The notes beneath the pieces were generated by a model. The model had not been told where the DNA came from, made no database searches, and was given only the letters and a program-made list of their open reading frames with translations. This document shows positions 16,279-63,726 of a stretch of 64,000 nucleotides of DNA, piece after piece. Position numbers and translations under genes: made by a program. Within the stretch, counting starts at the first letter, position 1; every line of letters starts with the position of its first letter. The stretch comes from Verrucomicrobiota bacterium (GTDB lineage: Bacteria > Verrucomicrobiota > Kiritimatiellia > JAAZAB01), in assembly GCA_043814705.1 (NCBI GenBank), contig JBDRJR010000122.1:9295-73294 (forward strand), written 5' to 3'.

Positions 16279-16287
16279 TCACGGCTT

Positions 16288-16417: not shown

Positions 16418-16433
16418 AGCGTTCCTTGAACGC

Positions 16434-47071: not shown

Positions 47072-47149
47072 AAGTCGCGCTCCAATGCGCGTTTTTTTAT
47101 TTTGATTTCCGGCAAGTTTTGTAATACAAATGAATCACACGGAACTAAC

Positions 47150-48091: not shown

Positions 48092-48907
48092 ATGTCTGCG
48101 GATATTATAAATTCAACCATCATTACGGGCGGGATCGGGCTGTTTTGCAGTGTCCTGCTGGGCGTAGCCGCGCGTTTTTTCGCCGTGCACGAGGACCAGC
48201 GCATTGAGGCGCTTACCGCCCTCCTGCCCGGCGCCAACTGCGGCGCCTGTGGTTTTCCCGGGTGCGCCGAATATGCCCGCGCGCTCATCGGCGCGCACGC
48301 CAAAGTCAACCTTTGCAAACCAGGCGGAGCAACAACCATGCACGCGCTGGCATCCTGTCTGGGAATTGAGCCGGTGGTCACGGAACGGCAGGTGGCCATT
48401 GTGCTCTGCAACGGGGATGATCAAACAGCCGCACGCAAATTTCGCTATAATGGCATCGCCGATTGCGCCGCCGCGGCGCTCGTGGGCGGAGGCGACAAGG
48501 CCTGCAGTTACGGATGCCTGGGGCTGGGAAGCTGTGCGCGCGTTTGCCCGACCGACGCCATCGAAATTACGCCTGCACACCTGGCCGTTGTGCATCCGGA
48601 ACTGTGCATCGGCTGTGGACAGTGCCTGAAAGCCTGTCCTAAAAAGATCATCCGGCTCGTGCCCGAAAGCCGGACGATTCACATCCTGTGCCGGTCGAAG
48701 GACCGCGGGAACGTGGTAAAAAAGAACTGCTCCGTCGGTTGTATTGCCTGCACGCTCTGCACCAAGGTGGCGGGCAATGCCATCAGGATGGAAGGCGCCC
48801 TGGCCGTCGTGGATTACAGCCAGGAGTTGGAAAATGAAGCGGTCATCGCCAAGTGCCCGCAACACACAATCATCAAGCGTTCCGGCCGGAAGGCGGTCCC
48901 GGCATGA
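48092..48907 (+). CDS. rnfB: Rnf complex subunit B (polyferredoxin)
   Basis: N-terminal TM anchor, a GANCGACGFPGC cluster, and two further 4Fe-4S CxxCxxCxxxCP motifs. Confidence 0.85.
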   Translation: MSADIINSTIITGGIGLFCSVLLGVAARFFAVHEDQRIEALTALLPGANCGACGFPGCAEYARALIGAHAKVNLCKPGGATTMHALASCLGIEPVVTERQVAIVLCNGDDQTAARKFRYNGIADCAAAALVGGGDKACSYGCLGLGSCARVCPTDAIEITPAHLAVVHPELCIGCGQCLKACPKKIIRLVPESRTIHILCRSKDRGNVVKKNCSVGCIACTLCTKVAGNAIRMEGALAVVDYSQELENEAVIAKCPQHTIIKRSGRKAVPA

Positions 48908-50253
48908 AAATATTACGGGAACTGTTCCGTTCCAAAGGCGGCATCCATCCGGCGTCCCGCAAGCGGGCAACCGCCGCCATGCCTGTTGAAAACATGCCGT
49001 TATCGAAAGTTTTTTTCGTGTCCATGGTCCAGCACATGGGTGCACCGGCCCGGCCGATTGTAAAAAAAGGCGATGCCGTCATGCGCGGGCAGGTTCTGGG
49101 CGAAGCCGGGGGCTATGTTTCCGCGCCGGTCCACGCGCCAACCTCCGGCAAGGTCATCGCCCTCGGCGAACGCCCGACCCAGGCTGGCCTGCCGGCCGTA
49201 TGCGTGGAGATTGAGACTGACGGCGCAGACCGCTGGGACCCCGCAATCCAGCCTGGCCCCGACTGGAAAACCATGGAGCCCAAAGTCCTTGTGGAACGGA
49301 TCGTCACTGCGGGCATCGTCGGCATGGGCGGGGCCGGATTTCCCACCCACGTCAAACTTTTACCGCCGGCAGGTAAAACAATTGACACCTTGATCATTAA
49401 CGGCGCGGAATGCGAGCCTTACCTGACCGCCGACCTGCGGCTCATGGTGGAAATGCCGCAAAGCGTATGGACCGGAGCGCAGATCGTGCGACAGATTCTG
49501 GGCGCCCGCCGGATAGTGATGGCCATTGAGGACAATAAACCCGATGCCATTCAGGCCATGCGCGCCGTCATGCAAGCGACGGACGCCGAACTGGTCGTCC
49601 TGAAAACCAAATATCCGCAGGGAGCTGAAAAACAATTGATTTATGCCGTAACCGGCCGTGAGGTGCCATCCGGCGGCCTACCCATGGCCGTCGGTGCGCT
49701 CGTGGAAAACGTCGGCACCTGCGCCGCCATTTACGAGACAATCACGGCGGGACGCCCATTGACGGAACGTATTGTGACCGTCACAGGCGCCATGATCCGG
49801 ACACCTAAGAACTTGCGTGTGCGCATCGGCGCCCCACTGTCAGACCTGGCGGCTTTTTGCGGCGGGATGGCGGGCCAGCCGGGCAAAATTGTTTGTGGCG
49901 GTCCAATGATGGGCCTGGCCCAAGGTTCGCTGGAAACGGCGGTGACCAAAACAACCTCAGGCGTAGTGCTCTTGCCGCGCCAGGCGGTTCAGCAATTTTC
50001 ATCAATGCCATGCATAAGTTGCGGCCGTTGTGTTTCGGCCTGTCCAATGCGACTGATGCCGAACACGCTGGGCGAGATGATCGAGGCTGATGATATCGAG
50101 GGCGCCGAGGGCCTCGACGTAATGGATTGCATCGAATGCGGGGCCTGCGCCTACGAGTGCCCGGCGCACCGGCCGCTGGTTCAGCACATGCGCCGGGCCA
50201 AGGCGGAGATCGCAAAACAGCGCCGCGAAAAGGAAACGGCAAACAAGGGATAA
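48904..50253 (+). CDS. rnfC: Rnf complex subunit C (NADH-binding, 2x[4Fe-4S])
   Basis: GMGGAGFPT NADH/FMN region. CISCGRCVSACP and CIECGACAYECP motifs. Confidence 0.9.
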   Translation: MKILRELFRSKGGIHPASRKRATAAMPVENMPLSKVFFVSMVQHMGAPARPIVKKGDAVMRGQVLGEAGGYVSAPVHAPTSGKVIALGERPTQAGLPAVCVEIETDGADRWDPAIQPGPDWKTMEPKVLVERIVTAGIVGMGGAGFPTHVKLLPPAGKTIDTLIINGAECEPYLTADLRLMVEMPQSVWTGAQIVRQILGARRIVMAIEDNKPDAIQAMRAVMQATDAELVVLKTKYPQGAEKQLIYAVTGREVPSGGLPMAVGALVENVGTCAAIYETITAGRPLTERIVTVTGAMIRTPKNLRVRIGAPLSDLAAFCGGMAGQPGKIVCGGPMMGLAQGSLETAVTKTTSGVVLLPRQAVQQFSSMPCISCGRCVSACPMRLMPNTLGEMIEADDIEGAEGLDVMDCIECGACAYECPAHRPLVQHMRRAKAEIAKQRREKETANKG

Positions 50254-50360
50254 GATTGCCGTGAATTGCGAAAACACCGTTCTCTGCAAATGGCTAAAGA
50301 GTTGCCATCCCCGCGACAAGCGGGAATCCGGATTGAAAAAAACTTTGGTTTGGGAGTTTT

Positions 50361-51434
50361 GTGAAGTTATTTAAGGGACGCTACCGCAATATGAATGCAC
50401 CTGTTGAAAATACTCCGCCATTGGCGGCCGAAGAACCCGCCTGGCTGGTGAGTAGTTCGCCGCACGCGCATTCGGGCGATTCGGTACGCAAGATCATGCT
50501 TGCGGTGATTATCGCGCTCATGCCGGCCCTGGCGGCGGCCATCGGCTTGTTCGGCTGGGATACTCTCCGTCTGACGGGCATTTGCGTTGTCAGTTGTGTG
50601 GCGGCGGAATTTACGACGCGCAAGCTCATGCGCCGCAACAAGGGGATTGATGACTTAAGCGCCGTGGTCACCGGCCTTTTACTGGCATTCAACCTGCCGC
50701 CGGCGCTCCCGGGCTGGATGGCAATCGTCGGTTCCGTGGTGGCAATTGTCATTGCCAAGCAATTTTACGGCGGGCTGGGTTATAACCCCTTCAATCCGGC
50801 CCTGATCGGACGTGTATTCCTGTTAATTTCGTTCCCCGTGGCCATGACAACCTGGAGTCCGTGGCACATCATATCGCCGGCGGCCGGCGTGGATGCAATC
50901 ACCACGGCCACACCATTGGGATTGGTCAAGACGATGCTCGGCACAGGTCAACCCCTGCCTTTTGCATTCGACGGCGCCACGATCCTTCAATTTTTTATGG
51001 GGAATAAAAACGGGTGTATCGGCGAAGTATCCGGCCTGGCGCTCCTGGTAGGCGGGATGTATCTCCTGTGGCGGCGCTGTATTTCCTGGCAAGTCCCGGT
51101 GTTTTACATCGGCACAGTGGCGGTTTTTGCCGCGATCCTCTGGCTGGTGGATTCAGCTCATAATTATAATCCCCTTTTCCATATTCTGACCGGCGGACTG
51201 ATCCTGGGCGCATTTTTTATGGCCACGGATATGGTAACCACACCGGTTACGAAAGCCGGCCTGGCGTTTTTCGGCATCGGCTGCGGCATACTGACCATGG
51301 TCATCCGCAAGTGGGGCGGATACCCGGAAGGGGTCAGCTTTGCAATCCTGATCATGAACGCCTTCACCCCGCTGTTGAACCGCATGACCCGGCCACGGGT
51401 CTTCGGACACGGCAAAGCAAAGAAAACCCAATGA
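50361..51434 (+). CDS. rnfD: Rnf complex subunit D
   Basis: NqrB/RnfD family with the flavinylation site region (TGATP..). The true start is possibly ~50391. Confidence 0.9.
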   Translation: MKLFKGRYRNMNAPVENTPPLAAEEPAWLVSSSPHAHSGDSVRKIMLAVIIALMPALAAAIGLFGWDTLRLTGICVVSCVAAEFTTRKLMRRNKGIDDLSAVVTGLLLAFNLPPALPGWMAIVGSVVAIVIAKQFYGGLGYNPFNPALIGRVFLLISFPVAMTTWSPWHIISPAAGVDAITTATPLGLVKTMLGTGQPLPFAFDGATILQFFMGNKNGCIGEVSGLALLVGGMYLLWRRCISWQVPVFYIGTVAVFAAILWLVDSAHNYNPLFHILTGGLILGAFFMATDMVTTPVTKAGLAFFGIGCGILTMVIRKWGGYPEGVSFAILIMNAFTPLLNRMTRPRVFGHGKAKKTQ

Positions 51435-52012
51435 AAGACATAATTAAAATGGTAGTAGTGCTGACGGCCATCAGCGTGGTGGCCGGATATCTATTGGCAA
51501 CGACCAATAAAATCACCAAGGCGCCGATCGCGGCCGCGCGCCTGGCAGAAAAAATGGATGCCATGAAAAAAGTCCTGCCGGACTACGATAATAATCCGGC
51601 GGTAAACACCTGCGTCGTGCAGGAAGCCGGCAAACAATGGACGTTTTACGTGGCGCGCAGGCAGGGTGTCTTCGCCGGCGCCGCCTTCGAGGCCGCCTCA
51701 GATCAGGGCTACAGCGGCACGATCCGCATCCTGGCCGGGATCCTTCCGGATAATAGCATCAAGGGCTTGGAGATCATTGAACAGACCGAAACGCCGGGTT
51801 TGGGCGCAAAAATTTCGGAAAGCGCCTTCAAGGACCAGTTTCAAGGCAAAGCGATTTCCCACACACGCTGGATGGTGAAAAAAGACGGCGGTGATATTGA
51901 CGCCATCACCGGCGCCACGATTTCACCACGGGCCGTTATTTCCGCCCTGACAACAGGGCTGGCGGTATATACAAATCATTTTGACAGGATCGCGGCCACG
52001 GACGGCAGATAG
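51431..52012 (+). CDS. rnfG: Rnf complex subunit G (FMN-binding)
   Basis: N-terminal TM anchor and the FMN attachment motif (ITGATIS). The start overlaps the rnfD stop (ATGA). Confidence 0.85.
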   Translation: MKDIIKMVVVLTAISVVAGYLLATTNKITKAPIAAARLAEKMDAMKKVLPDYDNNPAVNTCVVQEAGKQWTFYVARRQGVFAGAAFEAASDQGYSGTIRILAGILPDNSIKGLEIIEQTETPGLGAKISESAFKDQFQGKAISHTRWMVKKDGGDIDAITGATISPRAVISALTTGLAVYTNHFDRIAATDGR

Positions 52013-52113
52013 AGGTCAGAGATCAGAAGTCAGAGGTCAGAGGGCGGAGGGCGGAGGACAGAATAAAAAATGTGCAGGAGCCGATCCCCAATCGGCGATA
52101 AGCGAGGCAACCC

Positions 52114-52782
52114 ATGCGGTGTTACAAGGAATTGATTAAGGGACTGTGGACGGAAAACCCCATTTTCAGGATTGTGCTGGGCATGTGCCCTACCCTGGCG
52201 ATTACGACCTCGGTCAATAATGCCGTCGGCATGGGATTGGCCGCCACGTTTGTGCTGGTCTGTTCCAATACCGCCGTTGCGGCCGTGCGCAATATCGTGC
52301 CGGGCAAAGTCCGGATTCCGTGTTACATCGTGATTATTGCCACCTTTGTCACGATTGTGGACCTGTTGATGAATGCGTTTGCGCACGAATTGCACAAAGC
52401 CTTGGGTATCTTTATTCCACTGATCGTGGTGAACTGCATCATCCTGGGCAGGGCTGAAGCGTTTGCCAGCAAGAACGGCGTCTGGCTGTCGCTTGCTGAC
52501 GGCATTGGCATGGGCATAGGCTTCACGCTGGCGCTGATTGTGGTTTCCGCCGTCCGGGAAATTCTGGGAAACGCCACCCTGCTGGGTTATGCCGTCGGCC
52601 ATTACCAGTCCGTCCTGCTGATGGTTCTGCCACCGGGTGGATTCCTGACGTTGGGCTGTCTGCTGGCGCTGATGAATCACATCCAAGCTTGCATGGCTTT
52701 GCATAGCGGACGCACATACGCCCCATCCCCTGCTCTCGACTGCCGCCACTGCATGATCTGCAAATGGGATGAGGAAAAATAA
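52114..52782 (+). CDS. rnfE: Rnf complex subunit E
   Basis: LWTENPIFRIVLGMCPTLAITTSV is the RnfE/NqrD signature. Confidence 0.9.
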   Translation: MRCYKELIKGLWTENPIFRIVLGMCPTLAITTSVNNAVGMGLAATFVLVCSNTAVAAVRNIVPGKVRIPCYIVIIATFVTIVDLLMNAFAHELHKALGIFIPLIVVNCIILGRAEAFASKNGVWLSLADGIGMGIGFTLALIVVSAVREILGNATLLGYAVGHYQSVLLMVLPPGGFLTLGCLLALMNHIQACMALHSGRTYAPSPALDCRHCMICKWDEEK

Positions 52783-52791
52783 AAATATTTC

Positions 52792-54234
52792 GTGAAATTC
52801 GAATTAATACTTGCATTCGCCGTTTTGACGCCACTGCTTGGCTCGTTTTCCCTGCCCCTGATTGGCCGCTGGTCGGAACAAACACGTAATGGATTAGCGC
52901 TGATTTTTGTGCTGGTGGCGCTCGGCATGGCGGTCATGCTGGTTCCGTTCGTTACCGCCGGACTGACTGTCTCCGTGCAATTGGCCGGATTTACGCTCTT
53001 TTACGCCGACAGCCTGGCCGTGTTCATGGCCATCGTTTCATCCCTGGTAGGCGCCGTCATTGTCCTGTATTCCTTCGGTTACATCCGCCACTATCCCTGG
53101 CGGAATGAATACTATTTCATGGTGGTCCTCTTCCTGGGCGCCATGATGGGGCTGATTTTCGCGCGAAACCTGCTCGTCCTTTACCTGTTCTGGGAAATTA
53201 CGTCCATTGCCTGTTGGCGGCTAATCGGCTTTTTCCGGGAAAAAAGCTATGTGCTCAAAGCCGACAAGGCCTTTCTCGTCACCGTATTCGGCGCCCTGGT
53301 AATGCTCATGGGGTTTATTATAATTTACAGTCAAACGGGCTCTTTCGATCTGGGCCGGATCCAAACGGCCCTTCAAGGCCGGCCGATCTCTAATATCGCG
53401 GTATTGCTGATCCTGTTCGGCATTTTGTCAAAGTCCGCCACGGTGCCTCTGCATACCTGGCTTCCGGATGCCGGTGTAGCGCCCGCGCCGGTCACGGCGC
53501 TCCTGCATGCCGCCGTGCTGGTAAAAATCGGCGTTTATGTATATGCCCGGTTGTTTCTCGCCGGCATGGCGATCGAACCAATCTGGCACACGGTGGTTCC
53601 GGCCATTGCGGCGGTCAGCGCGCTTGTTGCGGCCGGCGCGGCCCTGGTCGAAACCAACTTGAAACGTCTGATCGCCTATTCCACGATCAGCCAGATCGGA
53701 TTCATCTTCCTGGGACTTTCCATCGGCAACGAAATCGGCATTGCCGGCGGTTTGCTTTATATCCTCATGCACGGGATTGCCAAGGCCGGCCTGTTCCTGT
53801 GCGCCGGCATCGTCGAACAAAACGCTAAAACCAAGGACATTACCCAGATGGGCGGATTGATCACCACGATGCCCGTGACCGCCGTTGCTTTCCTGCTTTG
53901 CGCATTTTCGGTAATGGGCATTCCGCCGACGGGCGGTTTCTTCAGCAAGTATATGGTCATTACCGGCGCGGTAACCAGCGGGCAGATAGTCATTACCCTG
54001 ACATTCATTGTCGGCGCGTTCCTGACGATCATTTACCTGTTCCGCGCGTTCACGCTCGTGTTTCTGGGCGAATCAAAGCTTGCGGCGGGATTCCGGCCGG
54101 CGGAAGGTTCGCCGGTAATGGTCTTCAGCGTTGCCTTCCTGGGCGCACTGGCAATCCTCAGCGGATTATTCATTAATTTTCCGTCGCAATTTGTTCAAAC
54201 CGCCGTGCACCAGATGCTGGGGCTAATTCAATAA
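52792..54234 (+). CDS. Antiporter-like subunit 1 of the membrane-bound hydrogenase (NuoN/MrpD-type proton-conducting membrane transporter)
   Basis: ~14 TM helices and the conserved TWLPDA motif of the complex I/Mrp antiporter family. Confidence 0.8.
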   Translation: MKFELILAFAVLTPLLGSFSLPLIGRWSEQTRNGLALIFVLVALGMAVMLVPFVTAGLTVSVQLAGFTLFYADSLAVFMAIVSSLVGAVIVLYSFGYIRHYPWRNEYYFMVVLFLGAMMGLIFARNLLVLYLFWEITSIACWRLIGFFREKSYVLKADKAFLVTVFGALVMLMGFIIIYSQTGSFDLGRIQTALQGRPISNIAVLLILFGILSKSATVPLHTWLPDAGVAPAPVTALLHAAVLVKIGVYVYARLFLAGMAIEPIWHTVVPAIAAVSALVAAGAALVETNLKRLIAYSTISQIGFIFLGLSIGNEIGIAGGLLYILMHGIAKAGLFLCAGIVEQNAKTKDITQMGGLITTMPVTAVAFLLCAFSVMGIPPTGGFFSKYMVITGAVTSGQIVITLTFIVGAFLTIIYLFRAFTLVFLGESKLAAGFRPAEGSPVMVFSVAFLGALAILSGLFINFPSQFVQTAVHQMLGLIQ

Positions 54235-54377
54235 CGCGACCTGAATGACCGCAACTGTTTCATTTGGCCGTCCCGATGCGCTTGCACGATCAGAATGACA
54301 CCGTGGCCGCCGAAGGAATCCACGCCCTCACGGGCGCGGCTACCAAAATTTACATTCTGATATAAGTAGCCAATAGT

Positions 54378-56234
54378 ATGCGCAACTATTTTTTATTTGA
54401 ACCGATTGTGCTTCCTGTTGCGGCGGGAATACTGGCTTTGCTGTTCCGCCGCGAGCAGGGCAAGGCCTGCGCCTGGTTTTGCACGGCCGTTGCGGCGATC
54501 CATCTGGCCATGGCGGCATATCTGTTCGGGAAAGAATCAAGCCTGACTCTGCCCTGGGGCGCATTTGGTTTTGAATTCTCCTTGCGGCTTTATCATTTCA
54601 GCGGTTTCATCCTGCTGGCGGCGGCGGGATTCGGTTTCCTGATTGCGCTGTATTCCACGGCCTTTATGGACGGCGGGCGCTTCCTGAACCAATATTACGC
54701 GTATTTTCTGTTAACGCTGGGATTGGTCAACGGCGCCGTCCTGGCCGACAACCTGATTGTCATGCTCTTCTTCTGGGAAAGCTTGCTCCTTACGCTGTTC
54801 GGCATGATTATCATCGGCCAACCCGGGGCGTATAAAACCGCAGTCAAGGCGTTCATCATTTCAGGTGTCGCCGACCTCTGCATGATGGTCGGAATCGGGA
54901 TGACCATTTATATCGCGGGCACCATGACAATGTCGCAGATTCGTCTGCCGGTGGGCGCATGGAGCAGTGCGGCATTTATTTTTCTGATGATCGGCGCCAT
55001 CGCCAAGTCCGGGGCCATGCCTTTTCACAGCTGGATACCGGATGCCGCCGTGGATGCCCCCTTACCCTTCATGGCGCTGGCGCCCGCGGCCCTGGATAAA
55101 ATGCTTGGCATCTATTTCCTGGCCCGCATCGCGCTGGACCTCTTTGTGCTGACACCCCTCTCGTGGCTCTCGCCTCTGCTGATGGTTATCGGCTGTATCT
55201 CGATTCTCCTGGCCGTCATGATGGCCCTCATCCAGCGGGACTATAAGCGCCTGCTCGCGTTCCATGCCATCAGCCAGGTCGGCTATATGATCCTCGGTAT
55301 CGGGACGTGTGTGCCAGCGGGAATTGTGGGCGGCCTGTTTCACATGATCAACAATGCAATTTACAAGAGCGGGCTGTTCCTGACAAGCGGCGCCGTGGAA
55401 AAACAGGCCGGCACCACCAACCTGGCCAAACTTGGCGGTCTGGGCGCCCGGATGCCGCTAACTTTCATTTGCTACATCGTGCTGGCGGCATCCATTTCCG
55501 GTGTGCCGCCTTTCAACGGTTTTTTTTCCAAGGAACTGGTTTATGACAGCGCCCTGGAGGCCGGACGGATTTGGCACGTGGGTTGGATTTTCTATGCGGC
55601 CGCCCTGCTGGGCTCCTTTTTTACCGCCGCCTCGTTCCTTAAACTGGGCCATGCGGCCTATCTCGGCCAACCTGCCGCCGATCATTCCAAAGTCAGGGAA
55701 ACTTCATTCGTAATGCTGATCCCCATAATCGTCCTGGCCGCGCTTTGCGTTCTATTCGGGGTATGGAACGCCCTGCCGTTGAATCACCTGATCCAGCCAA
55801 TCCTCGGCATGCACCCGCCGGAAGGACAAACGTTCGCGGGTTGGCCCGCCAGCACGACCATCGTTCTGCTGACAGTCCTTGTTTTGATCGGCGCGATCTT
55901 GAATCACCTATGGGGCGCGAAACGCGCCGGCAATGGGTTGGGCGCCGATGATCACATCCATTACGCGCCGGTTCTGCATTCGCTTTATGACAAGGCTGAA
56001 CGCCGTTTGTTCGATCCTTATGAAATCGGGTTAAAGATTGCCCACGTCATCGCCCGCATCGCCTGGCGCATAGATCGGGGGATTGATTATGTATATGACA
56101 CCGTAGCCGTGAAGGTGACCTACGCATTGTCCGCCGGCATCGGCAAGGCTCATACGGGCAGTTTGTTTGTCTATTTAGCGTGGGCGCTGGCGGGGCTGAT
56201 TTTAATTATTGCGCTGATCATGGGAGGAATCTGA
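54378..56234 (+). CDS. Antiporter-like subunit 2 (NuoL/MrpA-type, 618 aa)
   Basis: HSWIPDA motif. It is longer than the M/N types, with a C-terminal extension. Confidence 0.8.
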   Translation: MRNYFLFEPIVLPVAAGILALLFRREQGKACAWFCTAVAAIHLAMAAYLFGKESSLTLPWGAFGFEFSLRLYHFSGFILLAAAGFGFLIALYSTAFMDGGRFLNQYYAYFLLTLGLVNGAVLADNLIVMLFFWESLLLTLFGMIIIGQPGAYKTAVKAFIISGVADLCMMVGIGMTIYIAGTMTMSQIRLPVGAWSSAAFIFLMIGAIAKSGAMPFHSWIPDAAVDAPLPFMALAPAALDKMLGIYFLARIALDLFVLTPLSWLSPLLMVIGCISILLAVMMALIQRDYKRLLAFHAISQVGYMILGIGTCVPAGIVGGLFHMINNAIYKSGLFLTSGAVEKQAGTTNLAKLGGLGARMPLTFICYIVLAASISGVPPFNGFFSKELVYDSALEAGRIWHVGWIFYAAALLGSFFTAASFLKLGHAAYLGQPAADHSKVRETSFVMLIPIIVLAALCVLFGVWNALPLNHLIQPILGMHPPEGQTFAGWPASTTIVLLTVLVLIGAILNHLWGAKRAGNGLGADDHIHYAPVLHSLYDKAERRLFDPYEIGLKIAHVIARIAWRIDRGIDYVYDTVAVKVTYALSAGIGKAHTGSLFVYLAWALAGLILIIALIMGGI

Positions 56235-56236
56235 AC

Positions 56237-57694
56237 ATGCCCATGTTGCTCATTATCGTCCCATTGCTGGCTGTCCTGGCGTTGAACCTGCCGTGGATGC
56301 GCCTGATGAACCGGCTGGCTATCTGGGTCGGCCTGGGATTGTGTCTGGCCCAGGCCGGCCTGGTAATTTTTAACCCGGCTTTTTTCCACAACATACCGTC
56401 GCTGTGGCTCGGCCGCCTGCTCCTGTTCGAGTCCACGGTGGATCATCTCGCGCTGGTCATGTTCCTGGCCATTGCCATCGTGGGCGCCGGGGCGTTGATG
56501 GTCTGCCGCCATGCGGTTTTCGCGACGGCTGAGTCTGCTTTATCAGGGGTGTGCGTCAACAACCGTTTTCTGGTCATTAATCTCGTGATCTTGGCACTGA
56601 CCGGCATGAACGGCGTGGTGCTCGCCAATGATCTGTTCTCGTTATACGTTTTTCTGGAAATCACGGCCGTAGCTTCCTATATCCTGATCGCAGTTGAAAA
56701 AGGGCGCGATGCCTTCGAGGGCGCATTCAAGTATCTGATCATGTCCGCCGTGGCCACCGCCCTGATCCTGGCGGCCATTGCCCTGTTGATGCTGACCGCC
56801 GGCAGTCTGTCTTTCGCACATATCAAACCGGCAATGGACGCCTCACCCCATGGCCGCGTTGTCTTGGCGGCTATAGCCCTGCTGGCGGCCGGACTGTTCA
56901 TCAAGGGCGGCCTGATTCCGTTTCACGGCTGGCTGCCGGACACCTACTCGGCGGCGCCCGCGCCGGTATCCATCCTGCTGGCGGGTATTGTTACCAAGAC
57001 CACGGGCGTGTACACGCTGATCCGGGTGGTAATATCTGTCATCGGGTTCAACGCCTCGCTCCAGACCCTGTTTTTGTTGATCGGTGTTGTTTCGATGCTG
57101 GTTGGAGTGCTGGCGGCCCTCGGTCAGAGTGATTTCAAACGCATGCTGGCTTACTCCAGCATCAGCCAGGTCGGTTATATCGTGCTGGGTTTGGGCGCCG
57201 GGACAAATCTCGGTATTGCCGGCGCCATATTGCACTTGTTCAACCATGCCATTTTCAAGTCGCTCCTGTTTATTAACGCGGCCGCGGTGGAACAGCAAAC
57301 CGGCACTCGCAACATGAACCGGCTGGGCGGCTTAGCCGAAAAAATGCCGGTAACCGGCTTTACCGCGATAATTGGATTCCTGTCCACGGCGGGTATTCCA
57401 CCCCTGGCGGGATTCTGGAGCAAGCTGATCATCATCGTGGCGCTTTGGCAGACCGGCCATATCGTTTATGCCGTTGCCGCCATCCTGGCCAGTCTGTTAA
57501 CCTTGGCATATTTGCTCTCCATGCAACGACGCGTATTTTTCGGGAAACTGGCCGCGGGTTATGAAAACCTCAGGGAAGCAAACGCCTGGATATTGATTCC
57601 GGCCTGCGTCCTGGCGCTGATTACAATCGGCGTAGGCATCGGCATCCCATGGCTGTTTGAAACGTTCCTGCTTCCCATCCGCAGTTTGTTATAA
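56237..57694 (+). CDS. Antiporter-like subunit 3 (NuoM/MrpD-type)
   Basis: HGWLPDTY motif. The start at MPMLLIIV lies 2 nt after the preceding stop. Confidence 0.8.
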   Translation: MPMLLIIVPLLAVLALNLPWMRLMNRLAIWVGLGLCLAQAGLVIFNPAFFHNIPSLWLGRLLLFESTVDHLALVMFLAIAIVGAGALMVCRHAVFATAESALSGVCVNNRFLVINLVILALTGMNGVVLANDLFSLYVFLEITAVASYILIAVEKGRDAFEGAFKYLIMSAVATALILAAIALLMLTAGSLSFAHIKPAMDASPHGRVVLAAIALLAAGLFIKGGLIPFHGWLPDTYSAAPAPVSILLAGIVTKTTGVYTLIRVVISVIGFNASLQTLFLLIGVVSMLVGVLAALGQSDFKRMLAYSSISQVGYIVLGLGAGTNLGIAGAILHLFNHAIFKSLLFINAAAVEQQTGTRNMNRLGGLAEKMPVTGFTAIIGFLSTAGIPPLAGFWSKLIIIVALWQTGHIVYAVAAILASLLTLAYLLSMQRRVFFGKLAAGYENLREANAWILIPACVLALITIGVGIGIPWLFETFLLPIRSLL

Positions 57695-57757
57695 TATTTC
57701 AAATTATTACGCCACAGGCGGAGCGGCCGGAGACATGAAGCTTTTTGGAAAAACCGT

Positions 57758-58282
57758 ATGATTAATCCCGTCTTTTTCATCGTGTTGCTGTTCCTCCTCC
57801 TGCTGATGGGGATCGCAACGGTTATGACGCTTGATCTGCTGAAGTCGGCCATAGGACTGGCCGTGACCAGCGCAATCCTGTCGTTTCTGTTGTTCCGCAT
57901 GGACGCGCCCCTGGCCGGCGTTTTCGAGCTTTCCGTCTGTGCCGGCCTGATTATTGTCGTATTCATTAATGTCATCAGTTTGACCAAGCCGCTGACGGAC
58001 GCCGCCGCGCGCGCGCGCGACCGTAGCCGGGTCAGGCGCTTCATTTGCCTGCCGATCCTGATCGTCATTCTGGGCGGGATCTTGTATATTCTGCGCCCGC
58101 AGATGGATCTGCCCTTGCCGCCGTCCAGCGTCGTAACGGATGCGCGCGAGATGCTTTGGAATGTCAGGCGGATGGATCTCGTCGGCCAGATTCTAATTAT
58201 CCTGGCCGGTGTGTTTGGCGTCGTGATCCTGTTCAAGGAACGGCCCGATATCAAGGGACCGCGGGGGGAGGGTAATTCATGA
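57758..58282 (+). CDS. MnhB/MrpB-like small membrane subunit
   Basis: 174 aa with 4-5 TM helices and MrpB-domain-like organisation. Its stop overlaps the next start (ATGA). Confidence 0.6.
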   Translation: MINPVFFIVLLFLLLLMGIATVMTLDLLKSAIGLAVTSAILSFLLFRMDAPLAGVFELSVCAGLIIVVFINVISLTKPLTDAAARARDRSRVRRFICLPILIVILGGILYILRPQMDLPLPPSSVVTDAREMLWNVRRMDLVGQILIILAGVFGVVILFKERPDIKGPRGEGNS

Positions 58283-58599
58283 TAGCCCATGCGCAAACGC
58301 TGTTCGCCGCAGGTGTAATTTTCATAATACTGCTGGCGGTCACGGCGCTTTATTGCATCCTTATCAGCCGCAACCTGATCCGCATGCTGATCGGCCTGGA
58401 ACTGCTGGTCAAGGCCGTCACACTGCTGATCGCTCTGGCCGGTTATCTCGGCGGCCACATGGCGCTGGCGCAGACCATGATCATTACGATGATCGTGATC
58501 GAGGTCGTGGTCATCGCCGTGGCGGCCGGCATTGTCATCGGCGCCCACCGCCACAACCATTCGCTGGATGTCAGGACACTGAGGAACCTGAGGGGATAG
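58279..58599 (+). CDS. NuoK/MrpC-like 3-TM subunit
   Basis: 106 aa, three TM helices, and a LIGLELL-type motif (MLIGLELLVKAVTLL). Confidence 0.7.
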   Translation: MIAHAQTLFAAGVIFIILLAVTALYCILISRNLIRMLIGLELLVKAVTLLIALAGYLGGHMALAQTMIITMIVIEVVVIAVAAGIVIGAHRHNHSLDVRTLRNLRG

Positions 58600-58604
58600 A
58601 GCAA

Positions 58605-58698
58605 GAAATTTGTAATTCGAAATTTGGAAGAGAGACAAAACATGGCTATGCATTCAAAACGCGCGAAGACGAATATCTAATTTCCAATTTCTAATTTC
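58605..58698. repeat. MITE-like element, copy 3 (GAAATTN inverted arms) inserted between two hydrogenase membrane-subunit genes
   Basis: Left arm gaaatttgtaattcgaaatttgg, right arm ctaatttccaatttctaatttc. It fills the whole 113-nt spacer between the 58599 stop and the 58713 start. Confidence 0.65.
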
Positions 58699-58712
58699 AA
58701 AGGATTCGATCT

Positions 58713-59048
58713 ATGGATAACTGGCTGTTATGGACGCCGTTCACATTTTTGCTGATTCTCTTCACGACGCTGATTTTGTTGAGGGGCTTGGCTTTGTTTT
58801 CATCAACTTCCAGGGGCGCCGTCCCGGGGGGCAAGCTCAAACCCTATGCCTGCGGCGAGGATATGCGGGAAAACCGGGGCCAGCCGGATTACAGCCAGTT
58901 TTTCCCGTTCGCGGTTTTTTTCACCATCATGCACGTGCTCGCGCTCGTGGTGACGACCGTTCCCGTGCACGATTGGCCGGCCGTTGAAATCGCCATGGGA
59001 TATTGGATTTGTTCCTCCATCGGATTGTTCATTCTGTTCCGGAGATAG
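58713..59048 (+). CDS. NuoA-like small membrane subunit
   Basis: KLKPYACGE matches the NuoA/ND3 KxxPYECG motif, followed by a hydrophobic FxxFxxVA-like helix. Confidence 0.55.
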   Translation: MDNWLLWTPFTFLLILFTTLILLRGLALFSSTSRGAVPGGKLKPYACGEDMRENRGQPDYSQFFPFAVFFTIMHVLALVVTTVPVHDWPAVEIAMGYWICSSIGLFILFRR

Positions 59049-59114
59049 GTTTTCTGGAAGAAATGGTTAATGGCTAATGGTTGATGGTCAATGTTATTCA
59101 GGAGACAGGCATCC

Positions 59115-59558
59115 ATGAAATGGTTGCGGAAATTGACTGCCTGGGCCCGGATCAAATCGCCGTGGATCATTCATTTCAACACGGGCGCCTGCAATGGCTG
59201 TGACATTGAAATTGTGGCGGCGCTGACGCCGCGCTATGATATCGAACACCTCGGCATTCTGTTAAAGGGCACACCCCGGCACGCGGATATCCTGCTGTGC
59301 TCCGGACCCGTGACGCGCCAGATCCAGGACCGGCTGGTGCGCATCTACGAACAAATGCCGGAGCCCAAGTTCGTCGTCGCCGTGGGAGCCTGCGCCTGCT
59401 CGGGCGGCGTATTCAAAGGCTGTTATAATGTGTGCGGCGGCATTGATGCCGTGATTCCGGTCGCGGTCTACATCCCCGGATGCCCGGTACAGCCCGAGGC
59501 GATTATTGACGGGATCGTCAAACTGCTGGCTGGCCTGAAGGACGGGAAATCATCATGA
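59115..59558 (+). CDS. [NiFe] hydrogenase small subunit, NuoB-like (single proximal 4Fe-4S)
   Basis: GACNGCDIE, GACACSGG and CPGCP cysteine motifs. Confidence 0.85.
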   Translation: MKWLRKLTAWARIKSPWIIHFNTGACNGCDIEIVAALTPRYDIEHLGILLKGTPRHADILLCSGPVTRQIQDRLVRIYEQMPEPKFVVAVGACACSGGVFKGCYNVCGGIDAVIPVAVYIPGCPVQPEAIIDGIVKLLAGLKDGKSS

Positions 59559-60016
59559 CGAACGAGGAAAAAATCCGGCAGGAACTGTCGGAACAGTTCG
59601 GCTTCGGCACGGAACAGATCCGCGTGACGCGCGAACGGCGCCTATTCCTGGAAACGCCCTATAACCGGTTCCGCGGCGTGCTTGAACACGCCGTGAACAA
59701 CATGGGCTTCAAGCAACTGTGCACGATTACCGGATTGGATGAAGGCGAATCACTGGCGGGCATCTATCACCTGGCGCGTGCGGATGGCATCGTGCTGAAC
59801 CTGAGGGTGCGCGTCCCGAAAGCCAATCCGGTTTTGCAAACGATCACCGACATATTTCCCGGCAGTATGAATTATGAGCGCGAGCTGGTGGATTTGCTGG
59901 GTTTCAGGGTGGAAGGGTTGCCGGAAGGCAACCGCTATCCCCTGCCCGACAACTGGCCGATCGGTCAATGCCCGTTGCGCAAGGACTGGAAAGCGAAAAT
60001 GCCGGACACAACCTGA
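59555..60016 (+). CDS. NuoC-like (30 kDa-type) hydrogenase subunit
   Basis: YERELVDLLGFRVEG matches the NuoC/HycE-N ERExxDxxG motif. Confidence 0.8.
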   Translation: MTNEEKIRQELSEQFGFGTEQIRVTRERRLFLETPYNRFRGVLEHAVNNMGFKQLCTITGLDEGESLAGIYHLARADGIVLNLRVRVPKANPVLQTITDIFPGSMNYERELVDLLGFRVEGLPEGNRYPLPDNWPIGQCPLRKDWKAKMPDTT

Positions 60017-60074
60017 ATTTGAAATCCGGTGTTTCGAATTTCGTGCTTCAATTTTAGATTAAAAAGGGACGGCC

Positions 60075-61298
60075 ATGGCTAATGTCAAGATTCCCGTCGG
60101 TCCACAGCACCCGGCCTTGAAAGAGCCGGAAAATTTTACCATTACGCTCAACGGTGAAAACATCATCAACATGGATATGCGCCTGGGCTACAATCACCGC
60201 GGCATCGAAAAAGCCTGCGAGGAACGCACTTACCTCCAGGCCATGTATATTGTCGAGCGCGTCTGCGGGATATGTTCCCACTCGCATTCAACCTGCTTCA
60301 TCCAGGCCGTGGAGGAAATCGCCGGGCTGAGCGTGCCGCCGCGCGCCCAATTCATACGCACGATCATCGCCGAGCTGGAACGCATGCACAGCCACTTGCT
60401 CTGGCTGGGCGTGGCCGCCCATGAAATCGGTTTTGATACCCTGCTGATGTATTCGTGGCGCGATCGTGAACTGGTTATGGATGCCCTGGCCACATTGACC
60501 GGCAACCGTGTCAACTACGGCATGAACACGATCGGCGGCGTGCGCCGGGACATCAGCCAAGAACATTTGACCGGCCTCCTGAAAACGATGGATGTGCTCG
60601 AAGAACGCACGAAATATTACATTGAAGTCGTATCGCAAGAGCTTACATTGATCAAAAGGCTCTCCGGCGTGGGTTATCTTTCACACGCGGATGCCGTAAA
60701 ACTTGGCACAATCGGCCCCACCGGACGCGCTTCCGGTGTTGACACCGACACCCGCCGGGATGATCCGTATCTCGCCTACCGGGAACTTGATTTCAAGGTA
60801 ATCACCGATAATCATAACGACGTTTACGGGCGCACACTGGTGCGTGTCGGCGAATTAATGCAATCCTATAGTATGATCCGCCAGCTGGCCGCCAAAATGC
60901 CGGCAGGCCCCATCGCAATCAAGGCGCCTCGTAAAATTCAGGCCGGTGAAGCCTTCAGCCGTTATGAGGCGCCGCGGGGCGAGGACGTTCATTACGTCAA
61001 GGCCAACGGCACCGACAAGCCCGAACGGGTGAAAATCCGGGCGCCCACGCTGGCCAACCTTGCCGCGGTATCCAAAATGATGGAAAACAACCGCTTGGCG
61101 GACGTGCCGATCATTATCGCGGCCATTGACCCGTGTTTTTCATGCACGGACCGGATGATCCGGGTCAACGACACTGGCGGCAACCAGCGCGAAATCATTT
61201 CCTGGCAGTCGTTGCATGCGCAAAGCGTGGAGTGGTATCGGAAACAGGGCATTGATTTTAAGGCGTTGAATGCGAAACTAAACCTGCCGCGACTGTAA
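60075..61298 (+). CDS. Group 4 [NiFe] hydrogenase large subunit (NuoD-like) with a ~40-aa C-terminal extension
   Basis: N-terminal RVCGICSHSH and C-terminal DPCFSCTDR Ni-Fe ligand motifs are both intact. Confidence 0.88.
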   Translation: MANVKIPVGPQHPALKEPENFTITLNGENIINMDMRLGYNHRGIEKACEERTYLQAMYIVERVCGICSHSHSTCFIQAVEEIAGLSVPPRAQFIRTIIAELERMHSHLLWLGVAAHEIGFDTLLMYSWRDRELVMDALATLTGNRVNYGMNTIGGVRRDISQEHLTGLLKTMDVLEERTKYYIEVVSQELTLIKRLSGVGYLSHADAVKLGTIGPTGRASGVDTDTRRDDPYLAYRELDFKVITDNHNDVYGRTLVRVGELMQSYSMIRQLAAKMPAGPIAIKAPRKIQAGEAFSRYEAPRGEDVHYVKANGTDKPERVKIRAPTLANLAAVSKMMENNRLADVPIIIAAIDPCFSCTDRMIRVNDTGGNQREIISWQSLHAQSVEWYRKQGIDFKALNAKLNLPRL

Positions 61299-61303
61299 TT
61301 ACC

Positions 61304-62245
61304 ATGATTTTAACATTGTTCCATTTGCTGATATTCCCGGGCTTTCTGTTCCTGTGCTTTTTCGGGTGGGCCATGGAATATGTGGACCGCAAGCTTTACG
61401 CCCGATTGCAGAACCGGATCGGCCCGCCCTGGTTTCAGCCGCTGGCCGACTTCATCAAGCTGGCCGCCAAGGAAGACATTATCCCCGAGGAAGCTGATCC
61501 GGTCATATTCAAATTAATGCCGGCCTTTGCCCTGACAGCAGTGGTTACGGCCTTTTTTTACATTCCCCTTTGGGGGACGCAGGCGCTGTTTGCATTCAGC
61601 AGTGACTTGGTCGTCGTAATTTACCTGCTTACAATCCCCACGATGACGTTTTTCCTGGCCGGGTGGCATTCCGAATCCCTGTTTCCGATGATCGGCGCGA
61701 CCCGCACCCTGACCCAGCTTTTTGCCTATGAAGTGCCTTTATTTATGGCCATCCTGGCACCGGCCCTGCTGGCCAACACATGGTCCCTCAACGAGATGAC
61801 GGTGTTTTATCATCGGCATCCGGCCTATACCGGATACAACCTTATCGGCTTTATCGTGGCGCTCATCGCGCTCCAGGGCAAGCTGGAACGGGTGCCGTTC
61901 GATATTCCCGAAGCCGAAACCGAGATTGTCGGGGGCACGTTCACGGAATACGGCGGGCGGTTTTTGGCTTTGTTCCGTCTGGCTATTGATATTGAAGCTG
62001 TCGTCGGGGCCTCCTTGATCGCCGCCGTTTTTCTGCCGTTCGGGCTGGGGCTGGGCGCGGGATGGGGATTTGTTTTTTACATTGTCAAGGTGCTCATTAT
62101 CATTTCCCTGCTGACGCTTGTGCGAACAGTCCTGGCGCGGCTGAGAATCGAGCAAATGGTGATCTTCTGCTGGAAAGTCGTGGCGCCGGCCGCTTTGCTC
62201 CAGCTTTTTATCAACCTGATCCTCAGTGGAGCTATCCGATTATGA
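61304..62245 (+). CDS. NuoH-like membrane subunit (HycD/EchB/MbhM-type)
   Basis: 8-TM NuoH-family topology with a conserved acidic loop. Confidence 0.8.
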   Translation: MILTLFHLLIFPGFLFLCFFGWAMEYVDRKLYARLQNRIGPPWFQPLADFIKLAAKEDIIPEEADPVIFKLMPAFALTAVVTAFFYIPLWGTQALFAFSSDLVVVIYLLTIPTMTFFLAGWHSESLFPMIGATRTLTQLFAYEVPLFMAILAPALLANTWSLNEMTVFYHRHPAYTGYNLIGFIVALIALQGKLERVPFDIPEAETEIVGGTFTEYGGRFLALFRLAIDIEAVVGASLIAAVFLPFGLGLGAGWGFVFYIVKVLIIISLLTLVRTVLARLRIEQMVIFCWKVVAPAALLQLFINLILSGAIRL

Positions 62246-62667
62246 TCAAACCGGGAAAAATGGCCCGCGAAGTTCTGCAATCCCTTTTCCGCCCGCCAGC
62301 CACCGTGCTTTACCCGTCCGTTAAGGTCCCAAGGCCCGACCGGTTCCGCGGCAAAATCAAGTTCACGTCCGCCCGATGCATCGGATGCAAATTATGCATG
62401 CAGGATTGTCCGACAAACGCGATAACAATTACCAGGGTTGGCGACAAGCAGTTCCAGGCCGAATTTGATCTCGATAAGTGCATTTATTGCGCCCAGTGCG
62501 TTGATTCCTGTCCCAAAAAAGCACTGGAGTCCACCACCGAATACGAACTGGCCCAGCTCCAACGCGACAAACTGAAAGTGATTTTCCATGCCGAGCCCAC
62601 GCCTCCATCCGCCCCGGCGGCGCCCGCTGAGCGCACTGCTGAAAGCCCGTCTGCAACCGGCGCATAG
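62242..62667 (+). CDS. NuoI-like 2x[4Fe-4S] ferredoxin subunit
   Basis: CIGCKLCMQDCP and CIYCAQCVDSCP. The start at MIKPGK overlaps the previous stop. A Pro/Ala-rich tail follows. Confidence 0.8.
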   Translation: MIKPGKMAREVLQSLFRPPATVLYPSVKVPRPDRFRGKIKFTSARCIGCKLCMQDCPTNAITITRVGDKQFQAEFDLDKCIYCAQCVDSCPKKALESTTEYELAQLQRDKLKVIFHAEPTPPSAPAAPAERTAESPSATGA

Positions 62668-63226
62668 TCTGGCCGTCGTCGGGATCGGGTCCGATCTGCG
62701 CGGCGACGATATTGCCGGCCTCCTGGTTCTGCGCAATTTGCGCGCGGCATTGGCCCGCCCGCAACGCTGGAGCCCTGCCCGCAATGCTACGCATAGCGTT
62801 GCAGGCGGGGTAGCGACTGCGGGCGCGGCGCGCTCCCGGCCAAAAACCATCCGCTCTGAGGCATCGGAACGAGTCCGGCTGTTTGATGGCGGCACAGCGC
62901 CCGAAAACCTGACGGGTGAAATCGTGCGGTTCCGGCCTTCGCATATTTTACTGGTGGACGCCGCCGACTTTGGACAAAAACCGGGCACGGTGAAATTAAT
63001 TGAGCCTGAGAATATAGACGGCATGTCGTTTTCCACGCACGCCCTGCCGCTGAATATCCTGGCCGACTATCTAAAGCGCACCCTGTCCTGCCACATCATG
63101 ATCCTGGGCATCCAGCCCGGGCGAACCGATTTCGGCGCGCCGCCTTCCCGCGAAATTCGACAAACCGCCCGCCGGCTCGCACGGATCATTTTAAATGCCG
63201 CGCTACGCCGTGAAAAAAGCGCTTGA
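62588..63226 (+). CDS. Hydrogenase maturation endopeptidase (HycI-type) carrying a ~50-aa low-complexity insert
   Basis: LAVVGIGSDLRGDDIAG metal-binding N-terminus and a downstream H ligand region. The start (ATG 62588 or later) is uncertain. Confidence 0.65.
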   Translation: MPSPRLHPPRRRPLSALLKARLQPAHSLAVVGIGSDLRGDDIAGLLVLRNLRAALARPQRWSPARNATHSVAGGVATAGAARSRPKTIRSEASERVRLFDGGTAPENLTGEIVRFRPSHILLVDAADFGQKPGTVKLIEPENIDGMSFSTHALPLNILADYLKRTLSCHIMILGIQPGRTDFGAPPSREIRQTARRLARIILNAALRREKSA

Positions 63227-63264: not shown

Positions 63265-63726
63265 CTAAAGGGCTCTTAATTCCCGCATGATTACATCGAG
63301 ATACTCCGGCAGGCGCGCTTGTAAAACCGGCGACAGTGTTTCGCCCGGCGCCAGCGTCTCGGGCTGGATGCCGAAGATAACGATCCGCTCCGGGTACTCG
63401 CCCACACGCCGCGCCAGGGCAATCAGGTCCAACACATTGCCTTCGTGAAGGGAAAAATACGGGGGCGCATCACCGGCGCGCACCGTGTCCGGGGTAAAAC
63501 GGCGCAAGGTGCCCGGCGCCGCGCCCATGCGGGCGCAATCCAGGATCACGGCCGTTTTCCGGCCGGCAAAAGCATGGAGCACGGCCATGCCGCCCGTGCC
63601 CAATTCCAGAAAATCCACGGTCGGAAATTCGGCTGATTTCCGCGTCAATGTATCCAGTAGGACCAAGCCGATATTCTCGTCCGAAAGAAGCCTGTTGCCC
63701 AACCCGATGACCACCGTGGGGTTCAT
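63265..63726 (-). CDS. Hydrogenase maturation endopeptidase (HyaD/HybD-type)
   Basis: MNPTVVIGLGNRLLSDENIG and downstream Asp/His ligands. It is on the opposite strand at the window edge. Confidence 0.75.
   Translation of the reverse strand: MNPTVVIGLGNRLLSDENIGLVLLDTLTRKSAEFPTVDFLELGTGGMAVLHAFAGRKTAVILDCARMGAAPGTLRRFTPDTVRAGDAPPYFSLHEGNVLDLIALARRVGEYPERIVIFGIQPETLAPGETLSPVLQARLPEYLDVIMRELRAL

Follow-up and report, generated by a model that had tools for sequence, protein, structure and literature searches.

The notion of a hydrogenase built from the eleven subunits of complex I is already published: Loh et al. presented the archaeal enzyme Hfo as the first hydrogenase of this composition and saw in it a link in evolution (Loh et al. 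2021, PMC7886697). A bacterial family of such hydrogenases is catalogued and not biochemically characterised. Studies of metagenome-assembled genomes (MAGs) from Elusimicrobia, Saganbacteria, Omnitrophota, Cloacimonadota, Auribacterota and Endomicrobium label such clusters "Mbh-Mrp type" or "Group 4g, Mrp-linked" (10.1101/765248, PMC6349859, PMC8542988, PMC9324843, PMC11257099), and the membrane-bound [NiFe] hydrogenases of Endomicrobium and Omnitrophota were reported as 4g (PMC11257099, PMC8542988). HydDB group 4g itself is a loosely clustered, uncharacterised class (PMC5037454) and is polyphyletic (PMC13582414). None of the literature that we found sets out a one-to-one complex I inventory or a NuoL-type helix for the bacterial clade. 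Here we analyse an operon of this family in a stretch of 64,000 nucleotides (hereafter the window) from a Verrucomicrobiota bacterium of the Kiritimatiellia (assembly GCA_043814705.1, contig JBDRJR010000122.1, positions 9,295 to 73,294). The locus very probably encodes an 11-subunit, ferredoxin-dependent, ion-translocating group 4 [NiFe] hydrogenase from the bacterial clade labelled "Mbh-Mrp type" or HydDB 4g.

Results

Organisation of the operon and its subunit inventory

Twelve closely packed plus-strand genes at 52792-63226 form the operon, eleven hydrogenase genes, labelled H1 to H11 in window order, followed by a gene for a HycI-type protease (Table 1). (H2 denotes the gene product throughout; the gas is written as hydrogen.) Pfam and NCBIfam model searches assigned the families and bear out the hydrogenase operon that a sequence-only reading of the window had recognised in eleven plus-strand open reading frames (ORFs). 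The extent given there, 52792-62667, holds for those eleven genes, and the unit runs on to the protease gene. Proton_antipo_M matches of H1, H2 and H3 have E-values of 1e-51 to 1e-77, and H7 clears the NCBIfam NuoB cut-offs. H3 most likely starts at the ATG at 56237, as in relatives, and not at the GTG at 56180; the start codon of H11 and the stop of H10 overlap by 4 nt.

The gene order is L-like, L-like, N-like, J, K, A, B, C, D, H, I, then the protease. By family and profile assignment, each of H1-H11 has its own counterpart among NuoA, B, C, D, H, I, J, K, L, M and N, and all eleven core subunits common to complex I, NDH-1 and Fpo-like complexes are represented among the predicted products. 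The likeness to an 11-subunit complex I noted in the sequence-only reading thus extends to every subunit. In public annotation the names given to these genes are mixed, with "NADH-quinone oxidoreductase subunit J/L/D" beside "nickel-dependent hydrogenase large subunit".

Table 1 Genes of the hydrogenase operon and other features of the window
Feature	Positions	Strand	Product	Family evidence
H1	52792-54234	+	480 aa, MrpA/NuoL-class antiporter-like, without C-terminal extension	Proton_antipo_M PF00361 (E = 6.5e-77), PF00662
H2	54378-56234	+	618 aa, NuoL-type antiporter-like, predicted lateral helix and TM16	Proton_antipo_M
H3	56237-57694	+	485 aa, MbhH/MrpD/NuoN-class antiporter-like	PF00361 (E = 5e-71)
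H4	57758-58282	+	174 aa, predicted NuoJ equivalent (fused MbhD+MbhE type), ~5 TM helices	PF00499
H5	58279-58599	+	106 aa, NuoK/MrpC-like	PF00420 (59.8 bits)
H6	58713-59048	+	111 aa, NuoA/ND3-like, three helices	PF00507 (E = 6.5e-4, under cut-off)
H7	59091-59558	+	155 aa, NuoB/MbhJ-like small subunit, proximal [4Fe-4S]	PF01058 (E = 4e-32)
H8	59555-60016	+	153 aa, NuoC/MbhK-like	PF00329 (E = 7e-21)
H9	60075-61298	+	407 aa, [NiFe] large subunit	NiFeSe_Hases PF00374 (N-terminus), Complex1_49kDa PF00346
H10	61304-62245	+	313 aa, NuoH/MbhM-like membrane anchor	PF00146 (E = 1e-73)
H11	62242-62667	+	141 aa, NuoI/MbhN-like, 2x[4Fe-4S], presumed ferredoxin entry point	Fer4 families
HycI-family endopeptidase	62588-63226	+	212 aa, large-subunit maturation	PF01750 (E = 4e-20)
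S11 peptidase gene	44746-45972		ahead of apbE	
apbE	46010-47071	+	in the block directly upstream of the operon	
rnfA, B, C, D, G, E	47102-52782	+	complete rnfABCDGE cluster	
Second HycI-family protease gene	63265-63726	-		
2-oxoacid dehydrogenase complex	13481-18749	-	fused E1 of 771 aa, E2, E3	
ORF	11713-13530	-	605 aa	no Pfam family at E <= 1e-5
ORF	34075-35637	-	520 aa	no Pfam family at E <= 1e-5

The NiFe site and the electron path

H9, which is identical to NCBI entry MFH1477621.1 from a 93-kb contig of a Verrucomicrobiota MAG, carries the L1 motif in RVCGICSHSH (CGICSHSH at residues 64-71, with C64 and C67) and the L2 motif in DPCFSCTDR (residues 352-360, with C354 and C357). Both fit the published patterns, L1 = C[GS][ILV]C[AGNS]xxH and L2 = [DE][PL]Cx[AGST]Cx[DE][RL] (PMC7886697). 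C64, C67, C354, C357 and R360 are unchanged in 73 orthologues, so the two CxxC pairs quoted in the sequence-only reading are present and no cysteine is lost on alignment. Beyond R360, H9 has a C-terminal extension of 47 aa. An extension of this kind is what a HycI-type protease cleaves off, as in the HycE/HycI pair.

The partner set of a group 4 [NiFe] enzyme is present as well, in NuoB-like H7 with four ligands, NuoH-like H10 and NuoI-like H11. The proximal cluster ligands of H7 (C34, C37, C101 and C131) are invariant among orthologues; taken together, L1, L2 and the cluster ligands are invariant in 52-73 orthologues. Kinship to solved chains, ranked by bit score only, lies nearest to Mbh: H9 scores 337 bits against MbhL, 274 against HycE, 215 against Nqo4 and 195 against MbsL, and the best solved relative of H7 is MbhJ (165 bits). 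H10 is almost evenly placed between MbhM (127 bits) and NuoH (122 bits), and H11 has full-length matches to NdhI, then MbhN, and also NUIM.

These data bear on whether the complex is a hydrogenase at all. Public sources call subunits of such operons NuoJ, NuoL and NuoD, H7 passes the NuoB cut-offs as noted, and H9 reaches 339.9 bits on the NCBIfam NuoD model, under its cut-off of 360, all of which would suit an Ehr-, Fpo- or Nuo-like 11-subunit reductase of quinone or another acceptor. We regard such a non-hydrogenase as scarcely credible, however: the four NiFe cysteines and full L1 and L2 are invariant in the 73 orthologues, the large subunit has a cleavable C-terminal extension with a dedicated HycI protease, and NuoD, FpoD and Ehr have lost these features (PMC7886697, PMC6349859). 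The invariant cysteines, the 47-aa extension and the downstream protease gene instead uphold the earlier assignment to the true group 4 [NiFe] hydrogenases, as opposed to derivatives of the Ehr, Mbx or complex I type.

Architecture of the membrane arm

The three antiporter-like subunits differ in their affinities. The best solved relatives of H1 are MrpA (200 bits), NdhF and NuoL, those of H3 are MbhH (208 bits), then MrpD, MbsH and ND2, and H2 is intermediate in sequence between the antiporter classes. Each retains a glutamate on transmembrane helix (TM) 5 and lysines on TM7, TM8 and TM12 among its conserved charges, which are invariant or nearly so in H1 (E135, K214, H239, K245 and K331; 60 orthologues), H2 (E134, K210, K241 and K330; about 60 species) and H3 (E141, K223, K254 and K341; 67 orthologues). 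The membrane glutamates of H5, E41 and E75, are unchanged in 68 orthologues. Because these canonical charged residues are retained, all putative ion modules of the complex look functional.

For H2, the NCBIfam NuoL model spans residues 10-615, and we predicted its structure with AlphaFold2 (AF2) from 39 homologues (predicted local distance difference test, pLDDT, 84.8; predicted template modelling score, pTM, 0.83). The model shows a 14-helix core, TM15 at residues 493-517, a helical region of ~70 residues at 521-591 that includes one 45-residue helix, and TM16 at 596-616. Foldseek matched this model to NuoL, ND5, NdhF and MrpA over 640-690 columns with TM-scores of 0.77-0.79, while the match to MbhH was limited to the core. 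Since both the model and the full-length matches agree, H2 is predicted to be a NuoL-type subunit whose lateral helix is long enough to span its neighbours. The structure prediction that had been proposed for the membrane arm thus returned, for H2, a NuoL-type fold with lateral helix and TM16. Margulisiibacteriota and some other genomes encode H1-H2 fusion proteins of ~1,000 residues (L063:3493-6522; P0134, P0136, P0158, P0160), ~1,006-1,010 in Margulisiibacteriota, which suggests that H1 and H2 are adjacent in the complex.

The small subunit H4 was less straightforward to place. It scores 33.1 bits on the Pfam NuoJ family PF00499, against a gathering score of 33.2, and also has weak DUF4040/MnhB matches. 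Over helices 1-3, a family profile built from 25 orthologues matched MbsD (E = 5e-10) and MbhD (E = 3.5e-9); its match to E. coli NuoJ (E = 6e-5) covered residues 11-110, and its C-terminal part had a marginal match to MbsE. The NCBI name of H4 itself is NuoJ, its relatives bear PF00499, frequently together with PF13244 (MbhD), and E57 in its FELSVC motif is invariant. The profile matches, PF00499 and the NCBI name mark H4 as the NuoJ equivalent, by sequence a fused form of the separate MbhD and MbhE of Mbh. Modelled with AF2 on its own, H4 gave a low-confidence structure, and a fold search with this structure was non-significant, with NuoJ and ND6 ranked first; the check for a NuoJ-like fold proposed earlier for this protein thereby yielded a ranking and not a significant match.

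H6 is a weaker case: in the PDB, its orthologue profile matched no chains other than those of ND3/NuoA, and the best match, which covers the whole length with the Y-x-C-G loop, has a weak E-value of 0.0028. With H4 as the NuoJ equivalent, the membrane arm is a complete set. The sequence-only reading had found its L/M/N, K, A and H types correctly and had called it near-complete, missing a NuoJ homolog. That absence does not hold, and the 174-aa protein described there as MnhB-like is more than that, namely the NuoJ counterpart. The further observation made there, that Ech and archaeal Mbh have fewer membrane subunits than this operon, is borne out.

The composition of this arm bears on two further readings. 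In the first, the complex would be a strict Mrp-Mbh sodium pump (HydDB 4d-like) in which, as in P. furiosus, an Mrp module converts proton pumping to a Na+ gradient. The hydrogenase module is nearest to Mbh, MAG papers use "Mbh-Mrp type" for such clusters (10.1101/765248, PMC8542988), and close relatives have an MrpE, MrpF and MrpG cluster next door on the opposite strand. Yet none of the eleven genes is a homologue of MrpE, F or G (MbhA-C; PF01899, PF04066, PF03334), no MrpEFG gene lies inside the operon in 58 complete loci, and the adjacent Mrp genes are part of another cluster, which is convergent and has a protease and a ferredoxin gene of its own; together these points make the sodium pump improbable.

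The second reading would make this the membrane complex of a Hyf/FHL-2 formate hydrogenlyase (FHL) whose formate dehydrogenase (FDH) is encoded elsewhere. Three antiporter-like subunits recall HyfB, D and F; on the NCBIfam HyfD model H1 reaches 278 bits, and H9 combines a HycE-like C-terminal extension with a HycI-type protease. The HyfD cut-off is 430, however, so H1 falls far under it, and the HyfB model likewise stays far under its cut-off. H9 is not fused to NuoC (H8 is separate) and is nearer to MbhL than to HycE, and NuoA- and NuoJ-like genes are present separately. Moreover, the window and the annotated relatives have no FDH or HyfA/HycB-type gene; more broadly, the larger ORFs of the window include no formate dehydrogenase, carbon monoxide dehydrogenase (CODH) or other oxidoreductase partner, and no FDH, CODH or extra oxidoreductase adjoins the operon in annotated relatives. 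The claim of the sequence-only reading that the system has no FDH partner and is not Hyf/FHL-2 therefore stands, and we give the formate hydrogenlyase very little weight.

The three readings weighed so far, as FHL-2, as Ehr/complex I and as strict Mrp-Mbh, each miss a defining feature of their class, and we rejected them.

Distribution and gene order

H9 homologues at 59-86% identity are very numerous. With one genome per species, the scan found at least 597 relatives, of which the best 80 were examined by tblastn with all window proteins. H1-H11 occur in exactly the window order in 58 of these 80 genomes, with the HycI protease after H11 in 54 of the 58; the other 21 usable loci break off at a contig end and keep the same order up to there. 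The best 80 cover more than 12 bacterial phyla, including Verrucomicrobiota/Kiritimatiellia, Phycisphaerae/Sedimentisphaerales, Omnitrophota, Elusimicrobiota/Endomicrobia, Margulisiibacteriota, Spirochaetota, Fibrobacterota, Myxococcota, Bacillota, Coriobacteriia, NC10 and others. Endomicrobium and Omnitrophota MAGs have clusters with the same 11-gene synteny at 66-71% identity. Gene order shared by 58 of 80 loci, with 21 collinear fragments besides, across this range of phyla indicates strong purifying selection on the whole assembly, and by the same comparison the operon is conserved and widely transferred and not peculiar to the window. The rarity implied in the sequence-only reading is thus contradicted: hundreds of genomes carry the conserved architecture, and an archaeal analogue is published.

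A single apparent archaeal member (P0028, "Candidatus Bathyarchaeia", locus L085 on DATKLJ010000203.1, 77% identity) was rejected. Its contig has bacterial gene order, with the operon followed by ExbB, ExbD and two TonB genes, and is probably a mis-binned bacterial contig. One relative carries downstream a smaller hydrogenase-like set (L030:9941-13920) of NuoB-, NuoD-, NuoH- and NuoI-like genes at 30-43% identity that looks Ech-like.

Gene order also bears on the kinship with Mbh. The genes of mbh are lettered in operon order. Since the letters of the solved relatives follow gene order, mbh, too, has its membrane genes first and its hydrogenase module after them, and mbhI-N and H6-H11 are collinear. 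The order is therefore not inverted relative to archaeal mbh, as had been proposed; the one difference is where the antiporter genes stand with respect to the J- and K-like genes.

Surroundings of the operon

Directly upstream of H1 lie apbE and a complete rnf cluster. The stop of rnfE and the start of H1 are 9 nt apart (52782/52792), and a promoter/terminator scan, which is weak evidence, placed no terminator-like structure between them. By contrast, close relatives (83-93% identity) have an S11 peptidase gene directly upstream of H1 and no Rnf nearby; in the window the S11 peptidase gene precedes apbE. None of the 80 genome loci had an Rnf or ApbE match, and none of 15 metagenome loci, among them relatives of 89-93% identity with 6-8 kb of upstream sequence, had a co-directional Rnf. 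With no co-directional Rnf in about 95 related loci, Rnf linkage as a trait of the family is ruled out. Because relatives keep the S11 peptidase gene next to H1 without Rnf, the rnf block is, on this comparison, a lineage-specific insertion in this genome, and it probably joins the genes of two ferredoxin-oxidising ion pumps in a single transcription unit. Among the roughly 95 loci, just one other Rnf-type neighbour was seen, a divergent RnfC-like gene of 45% identity in a metagenome relative (L094:5-772, minus strand), ~900 nt upstream of an H1 of 80% identity.

Downstream, the window holds a second HycI-family protease gene on the opposite strand. In Kiritimatiellia relatives (L081-L084, e.g. 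L081:14544-21227) the corresponding minus-strand gene is the last of a convergent second hydrogenase cluster, which comprises a Fer4 gene, MrpG, F, E, D, C, B, MbhD/E and an MrpA-like gene. A second, Mrp-linked hydrogenase cluster thus probably follows here past window position 64000, and close Kiritimatiellia relatives appear to have two different group 4 hydrogenases side by side.

The other larger ORFs of the window are housekeeping genes, such as those for AcrB, citrate synthase, a 2-oxoacid dehydrogenase complex, GroEL and DnaK. The 2-oxoacid dehydrogenase complex occurs in a genome that otherwise looks like that of a ferredoxin-based anaerobe.

Discussion

The mechanism that we propose takes Mbh and complex I as its models (PMC8165549) and extends the gene content, conserved residues and H2 fold described above. 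Reduced ferredoxin would deliver electrons to the two [4Fe-4S] clusters of H11, from where they would pass via the H7 cluster to the NiFe site of H9 and reduce protons to hydrogen. The energy released would be relayed through H10, H6, H4 and H5 into the row of antiporter-like subunits, probably ordered H3-H1-H2, so that H10-(H6, H4, H5)-H3-H1-H2 would be a consistent arrangement, with the lateral helix of H2 running back over H1 and H3 and clamping the row. The antiporter-like subunits would export H+ or Na+, and the reaction should be reversible. A fermenting Kiritimatiellia/Verrucomicrobiota cell could in this way dispose of ferredoxin electrons as hydrogen while increasing its ion gradient. 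The same function was proposed for such clusters in surveys (PMC8542988, PMC6349859, 10.1101/765248, PMC11257099).

Several points weigh against this assignment. Its donor, direction, coupling ion and stoichiometry are all inferred, no member of this family or of HydDB 4g generally has been purified or assayed (PMC7886697), and no hyp maturation genes are among the larger ORFs of the window. Neither the spatial order of the subunits, to which the length of the H2 lateral helix and the H1-H2 fusions give the only hints, nor the side of the peripheral arm is readable from sequence; in MBH and MBS that arm is on the opposite side of the membrane module compared with complex I (PMC8165549). The energetics are awkward as well. 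MBH, with two proton paths, conserves ~12 kJ/mol per 2 e- (PMC8165549), and by our own estimate electron transfer from ferredoxin to protons would yield at most ~40 kJ/mol even at low hydrogen, which would suffice for one to three ions and not for the four putative ion paths, as many as in complex I, that this arm sets on Mbh-like chemistry. The mismatch could mean a lower ion ratio, modules of which some exchange ions, or an enzyme tuned for the reverse reaction.

The last of these outcomes amounts to a rival direction for the same enzyme, namely physiological hydrogen uptake in which the ion gradient drives the reduction of ferredoxin by hydrogen. Uptake is known for the methanogen enzymes Eha, Ehb and Ech, and the many translocation units of the present enzyme would give a high ion/electron ratio that would allow it at low hydrogen. 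Four putative ion paths suit such a gradient-consuming, high-ratio mode better than they suit the small free energy of hydrogen evolution, Loh et al. proposed the same direction for the 11-subunit archaeal Hfo (PMC7886697), and the adjoining Rnf could hand the electrons on to NAD+. Set against this, the host lineages (Kiritimatiellia, Omnitrophota, Endomicrobia and Phycisphaerae) are mostly described as fermenters that need to dispose of reductant (PMC8542988, PMC11257099, PMC5148204), the window shows no Wood-Ljungdahl pathway or other large ferredoxin sink, and Mbh, the closest solved relative, evolves hydrogen. We therefore consider uptake rather unlikely, and favour a hydrogenase that is driven by ferredoxin and evolves hydrogen.

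For such a hydrogen-evolving complex, the genomic setting may matter. In this genome it is probably co-transcribed with Rnf, and two ferredoxin-oxidising ion pumps would then arise from one transcript. The ferredoxin outlets of the organism would be Rnf, the 11-subunit enzyme and probably the second, Mrp-linked hydrogenase. Group 4g-type hydrogenases are common in uncultured anaerobes of the Omnitrophota, Kiritimatiellia, Phycisphaerae, Endomicrobia and Margulisiibacteriota. Given the mixed Nuo and hydrogenase names of their genes, automated metabolic reconstructions may credit carrier genomes with complex I; what is gained for the window itself is a better annotation of genes that carry NCBI Nuo names and yet belong to a hydrogenase, together with the metabolic reading.

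A more far-reaching idea, which we put forward tentatively and hold to be doubtful, is that this bacterial clade, and not archaeal Mbh, is the living hydrogenase with a membrane arm built like that of complex I. In such an arm, three antiporter-like subunits would stand in a row clamped by a NuoL-length helix, and NuoA-, NuoJ- and NuoK-like subunits would connect the row to a NuoH-like anchor. A proton-reducing enzyme would then work four putative ion paths with a fraction of the free energy of complex I, and a lower or variable ion/electron ratio, or the use of some modules as exchangers, would be expected. On the same reading, the fusion of the operon behind rnfABCDGE in this genome could support an ion-coupled route from NADH to hydrogen, with Rnf running backwards and the hydrogenase forwards. 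A structure or an ion/electron stoichiometry would bear on the origin of complex I from proton-reducing ancestors and on the number of ions that three antiporter-like modules can translocate when the redox reaction yields little energy, a question that E. coli Hyf poses as well.

Relation to known complexes

Among solved complexes, Mbh (P. furiosus, HydDB 4d, PDB 6CFW) comes closest in the large, small and anchor subunits and in one of the antiporter-like subunits. The order from the NuoA-like gene on corresponds to I-J-K-L-M-N, and the donor is presumably ferredoxin in both. However, Mbh combines a single antiporter-like subunit with an MrpEFG/B sodium module (MbhA-C, F), whereas the operon here has three, of which only H3 is MbhH-like, and no sodium module. 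The NuoJ equivalent is split into MbhD and MbhE in Mbh and, by our assignment, fused in H4, and the present operon has, in addition, the NuoA/ND3-type H6 and a predicted NuoL-type long lateral helix.

Hyf/FHL-2 of E. coli (HydDB 4a) and FHL-1 (PDB 7Z0S) share with it three antiporter-like and NuoH-, NuoB-, NuoD- and NuoI-like subunits and a C-terminal extension of the large subunit that is cut by a HycI-type protease. Unlike them, the present system has no FDH-H and no HyfA/HycB, its large subunit is not fused to NuoC, its sequence likeness to them is below that to Mbh, and it has separate NuoA- and NuoJ-like subunits. Ehr complexes, which are also group-4-like, located in the membrane and equipped with antiporter-like subunits, are found across many of the same phyla (PMC6349859, 10.1101/765248), but they are without the Ni/Fe-ligand cysteines that are invariant in the H9 family.

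Cyanobacterial NDH-1, Fpo-like complexes and Nuo11 have an identical subunit inventory, a NuoL-type lateral helix with TM16, and a conserved Glu/Lys axis in the L/M/N-, K- and J-like subunits; NDH-1 also shares the ferredoxin donor (PMC8165549), which for the present enzyme is a prediction. They differ in gene order and in that the NiFe site here stands in place of the quinone pocket. Complex I, moreover, has one antiporter-like subunit of the MrpA/NuoL class, whereas two of the three in this operon belong to it.

The same concept is realised in Hfo of Bathyarchaeia (4g-6, PMC7886697), with equivalents of the eleven Nuo/Fpo subunits A-D and H-N, intact L1 and L2, no NuoEFG or FpoFO and no sodium module; like the present enzyme, it is uncharacterised. 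Compared by its published description, Hfo is archaeal and follows the Fpo/Nuo gene order, while the present family is bacterial and has another order. Set beside these complexes, the operon is a useful candidate for structural and bioenergetic work and not a new kind of system.

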